DNA of 63,983 bases, counting the filler, from Collodictyon triciliatum (Eukaryota): NCBI GenBank assembly GCA_043381765.1. It is 14 parts of 14 records of this genome, joined end to end, with 100 filler letters (N's around TTAATTAATTAA, not from the genome) between each part and the next. Parts side by side here need not be neighbours in the genome. Positions count along the whole stretch, not along the records: positions 55,422 to 60,528 come from JBHJMP010005479.1; 13 more parts are not named here. One strand, 5' to 3'. The notes below the pieces were generated by a model, which saw nothing but the letters and a program-made list of their open reading frames with translations, was not told the DNA's origin and searched no databases. The translations under genes and the position numbers were made by a program. Of this stretch, positions 5,117 to 62,222 are shown piece after piece (the first letter of the stretch is position 1; every line of letters starts with the position of its first letter).

Positions 5117-5216
5117 NNNNNNNNNNNNNNNNNNNNNNNNNNNNNNNNNNNNNNNNNNNNTTAATTAATTAANNNNNNNNNNNNNNNNNNNNNNNNNNNN
5201 NNNNNNNNNNNNNNNN
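5117..5216. other. Artificial contig linker (N-run, TTAATTAATTAA, N-run); recurs at about 8405, 13621, 18836, 24049, 29262, 34475, 39686, 44898, 50110, 55322, 60529 and 62123
   Basis: Identical 12-mer with stops in all six frames inside ~100-nt N spacers; most intervening contigs are 5107-5116 bp. Confidence 0.98.
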
Positions 5217-8266: not shown

Positions 8267-8504
8267 CCTTATCTTTGTTATGAATCGTCCTATGCGTGTT
8301 CATAAAGAGAGTATATGCGAAAAATCATTTACTCATTGAATGATTGATTTTATTATTTTATTTTATTTTTTTGCTTATTTTTACTTATTTAACCCCCCCC
8401 CCCCNNNNNNNNNNNNNNNNNNNNNNNNNNNNNNNNNNNNNNNNNNNNTTAATTAATTAANNNNNNNNNNNNNNNNNNNNNNNNNNNNNNNNNNNNNNNN
8501 NNNN

Positions 8505-13620: not shown

Positions 13621-13720
13621 NNNNNNNNNNNNNNNNNNNNNNNNNNNNNNNNNNNNNNNNNNNNTTAATTAATTAANNNNNNNNNNNNNNNNNNNNNNNN
13701 NNNNNNNNNNNNNNNNNNNN

Positions 13721-55264: not shown

Positions 55265-55488
55265 ACAACAAATTAATAAACATAAATAATAAAATAAAGG
55301 TCATGAAAAAAAGCGAGAAGANNNNNNNNNNNNNNNNNNNNNNNNNNNNNNNNNNNNNNNNNNNNTTAATTAATTAANNNNNNNNNNNNNNNNNNNNNNN
55401 NNNNNNNNNNNNNNNNNNNNNAAGAAGAAAAAAGAAAAATAATTAAAATTTCCGATTTGCATATTGTTTTTTGTTCACCGACGAGTAG

Positions 55489-55527
<39 letters not shown>

Positions 55528-57383
55528 ATTGCTTCACGCCGAAACAGAATGAAAAAAACTGAACGAAAAAAAATAAAAGAAAATAAAGGCTTACTCGAGA
55601 AGGTAAAAGACGAGGAAGCTGAACATCTTGCTGTGTATGAAACTTGTTAGTGCGCGTATAGAAGAGTGGCGATCAGTTTGACGGAGCCTGTGTAAAAGAT
55701 ACGCGTCTTTGCCAAGAGACTCGTGGCCCAACCCCAGGCACCCGGCGCGTGATTTACCCTTTTTGTGGTTTTCGCGCTTGTGAGATCGGCTGTGATCAAC
55801 AAACTTGGGGAGTATTCTTGATCATTTTGATGTGCAGCGACCCATCCGAATGGAGAGACCTTGCTTCATTATGGGTTTGAATGGGTTGTCTATAAGCTAT
55901 ACCTGGACAGTTGAATAAGGAATCTTTGGTCTGTGGCGGCAACACACAGACATCCATATCCTAATTTGGAATATTAGGGCTTGATGCAACTTGTCCCGAA
56001 TCTTGGCTCTGATTTGTTTGGAGGTTTATTGCTTGCCAAAAGCTGGGCGTGGTTTTGGTTGCGTTTCGTTTCGTTTCGTTTCGTTTCGTTGCTTTGTTGT
56101 GGGTGTGAAAATGACAAGGAAAGCTGCTCAGATTCACAATTTTCTCTTCAGCGACGATGGTATGAATTTGCCTCAAGAATTGCCGTCGAAAAGGGGGTCA
56201 CGTCTTGGCTTCCGTATCCAGCGTTCTTTTAATCCAGATCCACTTGCTCGTACCAAAGCTTCGCCTTCTCGTCATCTCTCGACATTTTAAGGCCACTCCT
56301 CACGCGATATGAGGAAAGCGAAATCACCGCACACATACAAATGAGGGTTAACTCCAACATCGATGATAGACATCCATCACTTCGAAACATAAAAAGAAAA
56401 TCGAGCGATAACATTATTATAGACGTTGGTCATTCTCATGTGCTACAAGGCCATCCACAAGCATTGCAAGTGGCAGACATCGTGCGTAAACAAGCATGAG
56501 AGACTAGCATCTTATAAAACACTATTCTCGAACTATTTTCCTTTACAGCTTGTGTGGCAGAGAGGAAAAGTCAGTCATGCGTACACTGTGTTTTCCCACC
56601 CTTGTATGGCGACAATTTCTCTTGAGCCCATAAAGTCACGGACAGTCCAACAATGCACCCCTGATTAAAATAAACAGAGATATATTGAGTCACATCAGCA
56701 GCCCAAATTCATCAAGATGACGAAAACAGCTCTTCTTTTTTTTTTTTTTTTGATCCAAAACAAAAGACACTGTTGGTCTGGAACGTGAATCTCAAAGAGT
56801 TGGTTGGAACCAAGGCGTTCCCTTCACAGCGGCAATTACAAATTCATCCATGTCTTTGATTCGCCTTTGCGTCTCATCATAGCAGAAAATGAATGAAAGG
56901 TATGTCATCAACAAATGATGTTTCGTCTGGAATACATCAGAGTAGTAAACCAGTTTCAATCACCAAATTCAAGAGGTAATTGTATTGACGCCATCTCTGG
57001 TTCAGTCGGGAAGGTGCTGCAATTCTAAAGAAATTTATATAAATTTCAGGAGAAACGTCACTTGAAATATTCATAGATGTGCAAAATTAGAATTCTTCAA
57101 CACATATTTTAATGAAATGTCTGTGTAAATAAGTTTCGTGAGGTAACTGGGGCAAGGCAGGTAGAACAGAGAGAAAAAAGAGAAAAGAAGGAACGATACA
57201 GTTTTATCACGTGTGTATCCCGTGATTTTTTTATTGGCGGTAGTTTGAGCATCAACAAGGGTTTCAAAATGAAAATGTTAGTACACTGCGCCATATGGTC
57301 GTTCTGCAGCCAAAATTGCAACAGCTAATTTTTGTTGAATGAGTTTATTATCATATATTGTAACTATTTTGCCAACGCCAATA

Positions 57384-59673
57384 TTAAAAAAGGCCAAATT
57401 TCTGTCGGAGATTAAGAAGCGATTTGACAATCGACACAGCACTGTTTGATGAGTATCCGCCACTGGGAACCATAACAATCGGGATGTCTCGGGTGAAGGC
57501 ATATTCAAATACAAGCTCGTCTCTTTTGATAACTCCATCAATGGAGACAGACAGTTCACCTTACAAAATAGTAGAGATGAAGATAAAAAAAAAAAAAGAC
57601 GGAGAAAAATTTAAGACAATCTCTCGGATATGATACTCTCTGTGTTAGTGTCACAAGGACATAGAAAATCGTTTGAATATCATAGATTAAGCAGTTGTTT
57701 AACATAACCTTCCAAATTAAATTTTTTTTTTGGAAAATGATGAATGGTAGTTACCTATGGCATCGCCTTCCAATACGTCTGTTCCAGCGTTGTAGTATAT
57801 TATATCAGGGGAGAACTCTTCAAAGGCCTTTTTTTATTACAAAAGACGAATAGAGGAATTATTGTAAGTATTTTTACCAGTATTAAATTATCACTGGTTG
57901 TTTTTTTTAAAAAAAAAAAAAATAGTTCTACCGTCTTAATAGCATATTTTAGTCGTGCAAGGTATACATCATCCTTTGTACCAGGTTCAAGTTCAATCAT
58001 CTAGAATTTAGCAAGCAAGAGTTAGAGAAAGGCATGTCGATGGGGAAAATAATAAAATTAATAATATAATTCAAAAGACAATAATATTAAATAATCATTG
58101 GAAATATGGTAATAAAAGGAAAATGTCACATCTGCTAAAAAAAAAAAAGAAGCTTTTTTGTGGCAAACGGATAAAAGTTTGAGAAACTTTATGTCAGTTT
58201 CGTTTACCTGCTTGATGGCTTTCTTCGCAAAATGGTCCATAGGATAATTTTGATAATTATAAGCATCAAGAATGTAGATATTGGGATCATCCATCCAAAA
58301 GCGTTCAAACCCATTTCCCTACCATTTATTTTGCGTAAGTCAGTAGCAAAAAAAAAAAAAAACGAAATCGTCTGAGTTAATGTACAATAGAGTGAACGAT
58401 GTGCCGTAGAGTATGCTACTATCGATCATATTCGAAATACCTGGTGTGCGTCTAAATCGATGTACATCATTTTTTTCAAGTAAGGATAAGCCTGTTGCGC
58501 CAGAAGCCATGAATAGGGTATATCACCAAACATGCACCAACCACCTGCGCTTGTTGGAGTACTATGATGAAATCCTGAAAAATATTGTCCTCATCAAAAT
58601 TCGTTCGTGAGAGAAAAATAGACAATAGGCAACACAATACATCAACCAGCAAATTGGCGTAGCCAAGATAGACTCGTACCTCCTCCTAGATTGAATGACC
58701 AGCCGCGTTGAATAGCAAAGTGTGTGGCGACGATTGTTCCTGCCATAGCGACCTTCATAGGGACTACAACCTTTACTCGCCATGAAGTACATCAAATTAA
58801 ATCATCGAGATGTTGGATAAGAGAATACTGGTTATAGGAGCCCAGCTATCGTGCATTTGTTCACTGCGCTGGATATATGATTCATATCCTGAAAGCTCTT
58901 GAATATGAATGGGAAAGCTACCTTAGATTCAGTCAAAAAGTATGGGAACATCGCTATGGGAGGAAATTCGCAGACATGTGCAACGCCGGCCGAAGATGAT
59001 ATGAATCGGAGATAATCCTCAGAATGTATGAGGAGGAGATCATCTCGAGTTGGAACACTCCTTGTGGTAGGAAACTGATCTTCCTTCAATATCCTGCATA
59101 TAAATTGTAAGAGAAAATGGTGAGCTCACCGTTCTGATAGAAAAAATAAGGTGTAAAAACAGTCAGCTATACGAATAAGACCTTTAAATGATCAAAACAT
59201 GTAAGAAACTAAAATGCAAGATGTGTCATAATTGTGCTTTTCTCAGAGGTATTGCTGCACAAAAAAAAAAAAAAATCTAAGGGTTCAGAGTAATGCTAAA
59301 TATCTGGTAAACACTCACTTGTGTTCGTGCACAAGGGCATTTCGTATGCGCCGATACTTTTTCGTGTCAAACGAGTGAAGATTTTCTATGCCTTTATAGA
59401 GCCCATACTTTGATTATTTTTAACATGGTAAACGTCTGTCACAGTCGAGGTAAAAAAAAAAAAAGAGGGGGATGTGGTCTCGATTGAATTAATGCAGAGA
59501 TATGTCCGAACTGCCCCAATAATAATAACAATAACAATAACAATAATAATAATACCCCAAAACGAGATGTTTACAGCATCGTGGTAGATGATCGGCACTT
59601 GATCTTTCCTCAAAGGAGCGGTGAAGCGCTCATAAAATGGAAAAGCAGCGTCCTCCTTACTTGCAGCCTCCAT
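57384..59673 (-). CDS. HDAC11: Class IV histone deacetylase (HDAC11-like), multi-exon
   Basis: NISFWGIENLHSFDTKKY, NLGG/GFHH, GGWCMFGDI, YIDLDAHQ/GNG, YNAGTDVLEGD, RDELVF, MVPSGGY. Confidence 0.9.
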
Positions 59674-59944
59674 CTGTCGAAATGATGAGGCTTCAGTATT
59701 TGTGAGCAGTCCTCGACTATGCTTTCTGCCTTTCGCTCGGATTTGCGCGAGGTTCATCGGGCAAAAAGCCTCACAAGCGCTGTTTTTTCCTGTTTTTTCT
59801 TTAATTTTTTTTTTTTGGCTGTGAATAGGAATTTATTCGCACGGATAAATTTCAAATCATATACATATTTGGTATCATTAACGTTCTCCGCAGAAGCGCT
59901 TTTTATTATGTGTTTGATGCGCGAATTGGAGTCATCACGTATTT

Positions 59945-60072
59945 TCTAGGTCTACTGGAAGGGGTATATCACCTTTCGATTGGTAAACTTGGTGCGCCAG
60001 TATCCAAGATCTCACCACTTTTTTTACATGGTTATGTAGTGGTGAAGGCTGCCAGGAAAGACCCGACAGCCT
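59945..60072 (-). ncRNA. Candidate Fanzor omegaRNA scaffold
   Basis: Three abutting stem-loops starting at the nuclease stop codon: 60072-60046 (11 bp with two G-U pairs), 60045-60012 (8 bp + 4 bp), 60002-59953 (UACUGG/CCAGUA closing stem). Confidence 0.5.
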
Positions 60073-60528
60073 ATTTTTTAGAGGAAGGTGTATGAATATT
60101 TTGAATAATTAAAACAACTTTGTTGAGTATATTTATGGCGCTGTTAAAGTCCCTGTCAAGAATACAGTTTGTTTGCTTTCTGGGCGATTGCATTCTTTAC
60201 ATATGAGACATCTATACACTTTTTTTTTGAATTTCCTTTCGGTGTCATATATTCCAGTTCTTTTTCGCAGTTACGACTCGTCTTGGACGTTCTAAATTCA
60301 TCTGCACTTACTGTCTCAAAACCTTTGGATAGTATTTTTCGTAATCCTCTTCCGATTGTTGGCATAAAATGGTTCGTTCGACAATTTCTGCCCCAGTCTC
60401 CATACGCCAGTACAACATCCTCGCCAAATGTCTTTTCGATTCGGTTCATAAACAATTGTTCACTTCTTTTTGTATTAACATACTGTCTCCATCTCATCTT
60501 ACGAAAAGTTACTTGCCCATAAAATCTG
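60071..60528 (-). pseudogene. Fanzor (Fanzor1-like, TnpB-derived RuvC nuclease) C-terminal fragment with two frameshifts
   Basis: FYGQVTFRKMRWRQYVNTKRSE..VVLAYGDW (RuvC-I), DEFRTSKT(S)RNC (RuvC-II + Zn finger), shifted VYRCLICKEC, shifted RDFNSAINILN (RuvC-III). Confidence 0.85.
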
Positions 60529-60746
60529 NNNNNNNNNNNNNNNNNNNNNNNNNNNNNNNNNNNNNNNNNNNNTTAATTAATTAANNNNNNNNNNNNNNNN
60601 NNNNNNNNNNNNNNNNNNNNNNNNNNNNATATTCTCGTCATGGATTTGAAAAAAAAAAAAAAAAGGTGAGAAATTAGATCGAAATGAGAGCCATTCTCAT
60701 TTCCATGGCCATTGATGTCGCCATCACTACTTTTGAAATGTACTTT

Positions 60747-61312
60747 ATCATCACTTTCATCACCACCACTTTCATCATCATCACTTTCATCATCATCACT
60801 TTCATCACCATCACTTTCATCACCATCACTTTCATCATCACTTTCATCACCATCACTTTCATCACCACCACTTTCATCACCATCACTTTCATCACCACCA
60901 CTTTCATCATCATCACTTTCATCACCACCACTTTCATCACCACCACTTTCATCATCGCCACTTTCATCACCACCACTTTCATCACCACCACTTTCATCAC
61001 CACCACTTTCATCATCACCACTTTCATCATCATCACTTTCATCATCATCACTTTCATCATCATCACTTTCATCACCACCACTTTCATCACCACCACTTTC
61101 ATCACCATCACTTTCATCACCACCACTTTCATCACCATCACTTTCATCACCACCACTTTCATCATCATCACTTTCATCATCATCACTTTCATCACCACCA
61201 CTTTCATCACCACCACTTTCATCACCACCACTTTCATCATCACCACTTTCATCATCACCACTTTCATCATCACCACTTTCATCATCATCACTTTCATCAC
61301 CACCACTTTCAT
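60747..61312. repeat. 15-bp minisatellite (CTTTCATCAYCAYCA)n in an intron
   Basis: Direct inspection; generates spurious DESGG / MKVVV ORFs. Confidence 0.92.
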
Positions 61313-61347
61313 CCACACACAATAAGAAAAAGCAGGATGCAAGAGAC

Positions 61348-61938
61348 CTGGACCACTGCGCGAGGCCAGTGCCCGTCAGGAATCCAGCCGTCGTGGTCGA
61401 GGACGTCGACGAAGAGGGTGGAGGGCGGGGCGGGCGGGGCAGACTTTGCGAGGAAGGGCTGGCAGAGCCTGGGGAGGGCGAGGGCCTGGGCAAAGAGCAG
61501 GGGGCGTGCGGGGCGGGGCTGGACCAAGAGCAGCAGGACTCTGGGGGCGGAGGCTGCGTGCGTGCGGGGCAGCGACGCGAAGAGGGCGGCGGCCGTCTGC
61601 GCCACGAGGTCCGGGCGGGCGGGGCTGTTTGCGCGCGAGGACGCGGCGTCCACCGTGGCGACCGAGACGGACTTGACGGCGCCATCACGGAGGAACGGCA
61701 CGAGCACCTGCTGCGCCTGCGGCTTCTGCTGCTCCAGGAGGCTCTGCCCGAGCGGGCTGTCCAGCGCCTCCCCAAACGCCGCCAGGCTGCCGTGCGACTC
61801 CAGCGTGCGCCGCACCCCGCTCCCCTTCTCCTGCAGCTGCGGCAGCGTGCTTTCGCTGCACACAACAAGCACGTGGTCCACCGCCCCAAAGTTCTCTGCG
61901 ACGCAGAGGTTCACAAACTCGACTCGGTCTGGCCGCAT
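61348..61938 (-). CDS. First exon of an M17 aminopeptidase, NPEPL1-like N-terminal domain
   Basis: SSRANSPARPDLV..LFAQALALPRLCQPFLAKS resembles the NPEPL1 SRHNSP..ALARAFPLF pattern; GT donor after VVQ; catalytic domain not in contig. Confidence 0.55.
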
Positions 61939-62222
61939 CGCTCCTGAGGTGCTCTGGTGAGTGTGGAGTCTTTTGTTTTCGTTCATGCTTTTTGTTTTTT
62001 TTGGTATTTTTTTGGTTTTTTGGTGGTTTTTTGGTTTTTTTTTGGTTTTTTTTTGGTTTTTTTGGTTTTTTTGGTTTTTTTGGTTTTTTTGGTTTTTTTG
62101 GTTTTTTTGGTTTTTTTGGTTTNNNNNNNNNNNNNNNNNNNNNNNNNNNNNNNNNNNNNNNNNNNNTTAATTAATTAANNNNNNNNNNNNNNNNNNNNNN
62201 NNNNNNNNNNNNNNNNNNNNNN

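Follow-up and report, generated by a model that had tools for sequence, protein, structure and literature searches.

Locus and surroundings

The window, by which we mean the whole 63,983-base stretch of Collodictyon triciliatum DNA that was analysed, consists of 14 pieces, mostly of ~5.11 kb and slowly shrinking in length, two of them short (3188 and 1494 bases). Between them stand 13 linkers of 100 bases (5117-5216, 8405-8504, 13621-13720 and onward up to 62123-62222), each built of 44 N, a 12-base word that puts a stop into every frame, and 44 N. As unrelated pieces have been joined here, distances and neighbourhoods across linkers mean nothing. Most pieces have a GC content of ~35%.

On the minus strand of the piece from JBHJMP010005479.1, at 60527-60032, we detected the C-terminal part (~165 residues) of a Fanzor1 (Fz1) nuclease in a decayed state (Table 1). 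Fanzor1 proteins are the eukaryotic and giant-virus relatives of the bacterial TnpB transposon nuclease. The Fz1 sequence ends at 60528, which is the end of this 5.1-kb assembly piece (55422-60528), and the gene is therefore cut at that position. The 5' three quarters lie beyond the end of the piece and are thus unseen, not necessarily deleted.

The remnant is read in three different frames (here A, B and C). An earlier sequence-only reading of the window had proposed a Fanzor remnant at 60071-60528 carrying the strings YGDW, DEFRTSK and RDFNSAINI and a split zinc finger. We recovered the three strings at those places and found the two cysteine pairs of the zinc finger divided between frames A and B.

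Downstream of the remnant lies a multi-exon gene with a histone-deacetylase domain, whose candidate ATG is at 59673 (or 59757). The first of these lies 398 bp from the TAG that interrupts the Fz1 frame and ~270-300 bp from the point where similarity to related sequences ends (59941-59973); the earlier estimate had the element end ~270 bp upstream of the deacetylase start on the same strand. Since it adjoins this intron-bearing gene, the Fz1 copy sits in cellular DNA. An AAT/AAC-type microsatellite occupies ~59520-59562, in the apparent first intron of the deacetylase gene.

In the next, unrelated piece, imperfect tandem units of 12/15 nt extend over 60674-61325; read on the minus strand, this long array gives acidic repeats of Asp, Glu, Ser and Gly. 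It is followed by a GC-rich stretch (61340-62100, ~59%).

Table 1. Coordinates of the features at the Fz1 locus, counted along the window
Feature	Position	Strand	Remarks
Multi-exon histone-deacetylase-domain gene	57387..59673	minus	PF00850 on two exons, E 2e-7; outside the element
Approximate right end of the element	59941..59973		similarity to contigs of other runs stops
Predicted stem-loops	60072-60046, 60045-60012, 60009-59945	minus	within 59945..60072
Former C-terminal tail and older stop	60032..60070	minus	12 codons, then TAA 60034-60032; from alignment of relatives
TAG stop	60071..60073	minus	replaces the family Gln codon
Frame C coding part	60074..60154	minus	RDFNSAINI 60154-60128, Asp 60151-60149, C-terminal region
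Frame C open stretch	60196-60074	minus	R-D-F-N-S-A-I-N-I
Second frame break, B to C	60153..60154	minus	one base missing relative to the family
Frame B coding part	60154..60219	minus	Cys 60210-60208, Cys 60201-60199, spacer to second break
Frame B open stretch	60270-60136	minus	Cys-x-x-Cys after the A9 run
A9 run (plus-strand T9)	60220..60228	minus	first frame break, A to B
First zinc-finger pair	Ser AGT 60278-60276, Cys 60269-60267	minus	frame A
DEFRTSK	60302 onward	minus	frame A; relocated RuvC-II Glu, GAA 60299-60297
YGDW strand	60404-60393	minus	frame A; vestigial RuvC-II (by alignment)
Frame A coding part	60222..60527	minus	equivalent to P0152 residues 479-580
Frame A open stretch	60527-60159	minus	123 aa; YGDW, DEFRTSK, then Ser-x-x-Cys
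Filler between parts	60529..60628		44 N, 12-base six-frame stop word, 44 N

Identification as Fanzor1

Frame A alone matched the solved structures of Parasitella parasitica Fz1 (E = 1.1e-10), Spizellomyces punctatus Fz1 (SpuFz1; 1.7e-5) and Guillardia theta Fz1 (5e-5), and all its other matches in the structure library had E > 0.8. Among 1.84 billion representative proteins it has 1365 relatives at E <= 1e-3, of which 246 reach E <= 1e-10; the full-length ones are ~620-680 aa long and were matched near residues 455-570.

A family profile of 651 positions, made from 65 hits of at least 560 aa, was scored on all 36 pieces that a six-frame translation of 59700-60528 gives. The hits of frames A, B and C fell on consecutive profile positions (462-573, E = 1e-46; 558-583, 1.3e-6; 577-607, 1.3e-5, respectively), and the remaining 33 pieces all had E > 0.1. 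Searches of the structure library with frame B alone or frame C alone returned no Fz1 and nothing relevant, and Pfam searches of the three separate frames (E <= 10) returned no TnpB or Fanzor family, just a chance topoisomerase match; the short frame pieces are recognisable through the family profile only. Given the E values of frame A, its 1365 relatives and the placement of the frames on the profile, the motifs and the colinear frames are far beyond chance. Both the family membership and the colinearity are direct observations.

We then joined frames A, B and C, with an X at each break, into a read-through peptide of 165 residues. It matched the family profile at E = 8.9e-61, so that the test named in the sequence-only reading, a comparison of the repaired peptide with a TnpB/Fanzor-type profile, came out in favour of a Fanzor remnant. 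Among the relatives in the protein library is P0152, a 648-aa protein from an environmental contig that is intact and keeps all three catalytic residues. The read-through is identical to residues 479-642 of P0152 at 106 of 165 positions (64%, E = 3e-71) and 68% identical to P0151, these two being its closest relatives. No second copy was found within the 63,983-base window by tblastn and blastn, and metagenome contigs scanned with P0152 gave a single distant locus with 21% identity.

Over most of its length P0152 matched the solved Fz1 proteins (2e-28, 3e-24 and 4e-23) and nothing else below 0.3. With a profile of 30 full-length relatives these matches had E values of 3e-99, 4e-89 and 1e-71, and the next after Fz1 was LaTranC, at 0.012 and 0.015. 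The Pfam family PF07282 (Cas12f1-like TNB) was found in several full-length relatives at scores around or above the cut-off of 26.3 (up to 32 bits). The expectation of a new Fanzor family was thus overstated, in view of the matches to solved Fz1, more than 1300 protein relatives and 520 matches in giant viruses (see below); judged by these similarities, the Collodictyon fragment is a decayed further member of a large and already known Fanzor1 clade.

Catalytic residues and zinc ribbon

The metal ligands of SpuFz1 are given as D383, N385, E541 and D606 in an excerpt of the Nature 2023 paper. An excerpt of the Sci Adv 2023 paper describes the canonical RuvC-II Glu of Fanzors as replaced by Gly or Pro, with a substitute Glu tens of residues downstream. 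In our alignments the V-D-P-G motif of P0152 is matched by Asp 777 and Asn 779 of the MBP-fused SpuFz1 chain, which gave us a chain offset of 394. With this offset, the Glu of DEF in the Collodictyon fragment, which aligns to chain Glu 935, corresponds to SpuFz1 E541.

The fragment has Gly (60401-60399) at the position of the canonical RuvC-II Glu and carries both the relocated Glu and, in frame C, the RuvC-III Asp of R-D-x-N-x-A-x-N (Table 1). The RuvC-I Asp (SpuFz1 D383; P0152 D364) would fall ~115 residues upstream of 60527, past the end of the piece. By alignment, two of the three predicted catalytic positions, the relocated RuvC-II Glu and the RuvC-III Asp, are thus present in the fragment.

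D364, E555, D604 and G521 (P0152 numbering) are invariant in 30 relatives, among which N606 and N610 are also conserved. The GDW strand corresponds in the alignment to G505-D506-W507 of SpuFz1; these residues are absent from the ligand list, and the strand reads GNW in the solved Fz1 of Parasitella and Guillardia. Its Gly alone is invariant in the 30 relatives. These alignments identify GDW as a vestigial RuvC-II strand that would be non-catalytic. The claim that all three RuvC acidic motifs are present in order therefore held for the order of the named strings and failed for their meaning, since GDW is not an acidic motif in this sense and RuvC-I lies upstream.

The zinc ribbon (TNB) keeps three of its four Cys, the first being Ser. 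By eye, 17 of the 19 conserved columns (invariant or at least 90%) in the covered part are kept; the other two are this Cys-to-Ser change and an Arg straddling the second frame break.

Lesions and a multi-copy family in other public runs

We found four lesions in 165 codons: a gain of 2 nt in the A run, a loss of 1 nt, the change of Cys to Ser, and the change of Gln to TAG. The A9 run is 2 nt longer than in relatives that are in frame, and the alignment with P0152 shows a gap of one residue exactly there. The lost base, at 60153/60154, is defined by comparison with the family. The TAG sits at a Gln of both P0151 and P0152, and the frame then runs for 12 codons to TAA. The copy had previously been called dead on account of frame breaks at the A9 run and near 60155 and of an AGT (Ser) codon at the first zinc-finger Cys; all three are confirmed, and the list has to be extended to four because TAG replaces the family Gln codon. 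Two frame breaks and an internal stop within 165 codons interrupt what would be an ORF of ~600-900 aa, and the Collodictyon copy cannot make Fz1 protein. A non-standard code with TAG read as Gln was rejected, as most family contigs read CAG and the relatives are open under the standard code.

Contigs of four public runs were aligned on 59850-60528 (679 bases) at a likeness of at least 80%. Two of the runs, X1 and X5, represent two coded organisms (A and B) from one study, and the other two, X2 and X4, are freshwater metagenomes. No public sequencing run shares more than 0.09 of the sampled words of the stretch, and the contig readings come from other runs than the source reads. Matching contigs numbered 71 in X1, 126 in X5, 2 in X2 and 9 in X4. 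Because so many distinct and diverged contigs match, the remnant belongs to a multi-copy family, and this is probably also what caused the assembly to break inside the Collodictyon copy. The contigs of X1 and X5 range from 80% to >99% likeness, and the family is apparently highly repeated in both organisms. Some contigs have internal joints (for example, 60079 to 60316), which point to deletion derivatives.

We compared the readings of these contigs at each lesion by depth, which for short assembled contigs is a measure of neither copy number nor expression. At 60278 the plus-strand base is A, giving Cys, at full depth in X1 (137.3/137.3), X5 (125.4/125.4) and X4 (2.25/2.25). The extra base behind 60153 is present at 89.8/102.1, 147.2/183.1 and 13.1/13.1, and G instead of A at 60073, giving Gln, at 179.3/186.7, 158.8/240.4 and 2/4, respectively. 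A run that is 2 nt shorter, and in frame, was read at 60221 at 74/263.4 in X1 (5 contigs), 71.9/249 in X5 (6 contigs) and 0/13.1 in X4. Three lesions (Ser, the lost base and TAG) are private to the Collodictyon copy, and an A run that is broken or slippery may be common to many copies of the family. Versions without each lesion thus exist elsewhere, both in contigs of other runs and in P0152. The four lesions, and the multi-copy relatives free of the private ones, are observed directly.

The gene might still be intact in the organism if the breaks, and perhaps the substitutions, were sequencing or assembly errors at a low-quality contig end where repeats had collapsed. The first break lies inside a 9-base homopolymer, and taken singly could be a homopolymer sequencing error; the copy is at the very end of a 5.1-kb piece, where several copies of a repeat may have been merged into a chimeric consensus, and 17 of 19 conserved columns are kept. 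However, no homopolymer longer than 2 bases surrounds the second break, and two of the lesions are base substitutions at sites for which Cys and Gln are the readings of all or most contigs of the family. Usual error rates give fewer than four independent defects over 165 codons, and A/T runs of 13-15 bases are found elsewhere in the assembly without obvious trouble. We consider errors of this kind an improbable explanation for the state of the gene.

Relatives in giant viruses

Fz1 is known from protists and especially from giant viruses, as described in an excerpt of the Nature 2023 paper. With an alignment of 30 sequences as the query, we found relatives encoded in 520 of 540 candidate stretches of a viral collection. 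The best 80 of these 520 are near full length and 38-47% identical to P0152, and many of the 80 lie on contigs of giant-virus MAGs of up to 289 kb. The read-through peptide matched all of these best 80 loci at 33-54% identity. Viral contigs scanned with P0152 alone gave no match.

The abundance of these relatives, the near full length of the best 80 and their identity to the read-through would suit an origin of the fragment as endogenised giant-virus DNA rather than as a cellular transposon copy. Against this, the closest relatives, P0151 (68%) and P0152 (64%), were not found in the viral collection with P0152 as the query, and an intron-bearing cellular deacetylase gene lies a few hundred bases away. 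The many diverged and internally deleted copies in the runs of two organisms fit a resident transposon family, and the 3' block of the viral elements (see below) is undetectable in the Collodictyon locus. A viral insertion is accordingly very unlikely.

Decayed copies and the A run

Several of the short relatives from environmental contigs are degenerate too. P0001 (209 aa) is a fragment with 64% identity in which the A run is read in the wrong frame and DKW stands for GDW, and in P0004 (134 aa) the first zinc-finger Cys is replaced by Tyr. Decayed copies of the family thus seem to be common in environmental assemblies. The A run looks like a recurrent hot spot of slippage or mutation, since P0001 also misreads it and does so with a wording that implies a different run length.

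We give hardly any credence to the idea that the run is functional, with a programmed -1 frameshift of the ribosome, or slippage during transcription, carrying frame A over into frame B: the change from A to B is -1 (equivalent to +2), the run reads A AAA AAG in the 0 frame, which we take to fit the classical slippery heptamer, most contig depth is without the 2-nt shorter run and P0001 also crosses it in the wrong frame, ending in ...KKCI, but P0152, P0151, P0002 and P0153 encode the stretch in one frame, the different run length implied by P0001 resembles a recurrent mutation hot spot, and the Collodictyon copy carries three further lesions regardless.

The best explanation of the locus, and one that we regard as highly probable, is that it holds the 3' end of a single decayed copy of a Fanzor1 element within a multi-copy family.

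Element 3' end and a candidate omega-RNA

Just past the old stop, below 60034, the depth of related contigs is about ten times lower. Loose contig ends are found at 59973 in X1, X5 and X4, and a single X2 contig extends to 59941.

Folded as minus-strand RNA, 60140-59941 has a z score of -4.33, with none of 200 shuffles as good, and forms the three predicted stem-loops of Table 1. Of 154 segments of 130 nt from both strands of the whole piece, the best was 59972-60101 on the minus strand (z = -4.35), followed by one at -2.92. For 60072-59945 itself, z was -4.0 on the gene strand vs -1.8 on the plus strand. Judged by these predicted folds, 59945-60072 is a candidate omega-RNA scaffold that would overlap the end of the ORF and run to the right end of the element. 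An excerpt of the Nature 2023 paper places the omega-RNA of Fz1 at the 3' end, where it overlaps the last 17 codons in GtFz1.

The same region is strongly folded in giant-virus relatives. The 130 nt around the stop had a mean z of -3.9 in 77 of them, 69 being below -2, a count that overstates independence because the 77 loci are related to one another. Control segments inside the ORF had a mean z of -0.3 (4 of 77 below -2), and the reverse complement -1.7. RNAalifold returned no consensus fold on the viral 3' ends.

The viral loci (L002-L081) have a conserved non-coding block of ~110 nt, from ~60 nt before to 50 nt after the Fz1 stop. Across the 60 aligned loci the final bases of the block never vary, and directly after them similarity ends abruptly; additional GC-rich hairpins are inserted within the block in L033, L037 and L079. 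From this conservation pattern, the block would seem to be the scaffold of the omega-RNA, together with the right end, in the viral clade. An nhmmer search with the conserved 3' block of 60 viral relatives gave no match in 59945-60072. A resemblance to the viral 3' ends that had been seen by eye around an AAAGGTG word is therefore not supported, neither by a consensus fold nor by a match of the viral block in the 3' region of the remnant. Searches against Rfam gave a chance CrcZ match only, outside the element, and the short repeats that were detected look like chance.

Comparison with known systems

In TnpB, as in Fanzor, the guide RNA is made from the 3' end of the element. The Collodictyon family resembles Fanzor1 (solved for Parasitella, 9cf0, Spizellomyces, 8gkh, and Guillardia, 9cer) in the sequence similarity of the fragment, and of its relatives over the full length, in the G-(D/N)-W strand that replaces the canonical RuvC-II Glu, in the relocated Glu just before the T-S-K start of the zinc finger, in the R-D-x-N-x-A motif of RuvC-III and in the predicted structured non-coding 3' end on the gene strand. 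It differs in that the Collodictyon copy is cut short by the assembly and has four lesions, that by eye, in local alignments, fewer than one in three aligned residues are common to the family and the solved proteins, and that the candidate RNA, at ~128 nt, is short and includes the last 13 codons in its overlap with the ORF.

The giant-virus Fz1 of the 80 IMG/VR loci (L002-L081) are near full-length relatives, and here too the 3' end folds strongly on the coding strand. In contrast, they have the ~110-nt 3' block that is undetectable in the Collodictyon locus, and they lie on viral contigs, whereas the Collodictyon copy adjoins an intron-bearing cellular gene.

With the prokaryotic TnpB of IS200/IS605 and IS607 elements and with Cas12f, the family has in common the architecture of RuvC and zinc ribbon (TNB), with relatives matching PF07282. 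However, the canonical RuvC-II Glu of TnpB is absent from the Collodictyon Fz1 family, which has Gly there, and the family proteins are ~250 aa longer. In the structure library, the family profile found no chain named TnpB or Cas12 at E <= 1; the marginal tail of this search held LaTranC (0.012 and 0.015) and a chain named 'Transposase' (9j09, at 0.76). A guide RNA from the 3' end of the element is described as common to TnpB and Fanzor in an excerpt of the Sci Adv 2023 paper.

Fanzor2 (for example, mimivirus ApmFz2) is similar in its relocated RuvC-II Glu and in its hosts, which are eukaryotes or viruses (excerpt of Sci Adv 2023). In contrast, the Collodictyon family clusters with Fz1, and no chain named Fanzor2 was found in the structure library at E <= 1 with the fragment, P0152 or the family profile.

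Proposed mechanism and significance

By analogy with characterised Fz1, we infer an RNA-guided mechanism for the Collodictyon family. In an intact copy, a protein of ~650 aa would bind an omega-RNA for which the element's own 3' end is the template; the distal guide part of this RNA, derived from the flank, would find a matching DNA target beside a short TAM. The target would be cut by the RuvC-I Asp, the relocated Glu and the RuvC-III Asp, with magnesium. The Collodictyon copy itself would be a passive insertion ~270-400 bp upstream of the histone deacetylase gene, and the sole possible residual activity of the relic is transcription of the predicted folded 3' region.

We put forward tentatively, as a scenario that is possible though rather less than probable, that the source protist or its close kin (organisms A and B) carry a recently active, high-copy Fanzor1 family with intact 648-aa versions, whose compact omega-RNA of ~130 nt would overlap the ORF end and which would be sister to the abundant giant-virus Fz1 clade. 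If true, the passage of an RNA-guided nuclease between virus and host could be traced in this case, and the family would be a source for a new editing enzyme.

The Collodictyon fragment is functionless and extends by one host locus a family whose presence in protists and giant viruses was already reported. It is a pointer to a multi-copy Fz1 family with an intact relative (P0152) and very common relatives in giant viruses, which, with a complete genome, could serve the study of Fz1 turnover, of virus-host exchange and of the small RNA at the end of the element.
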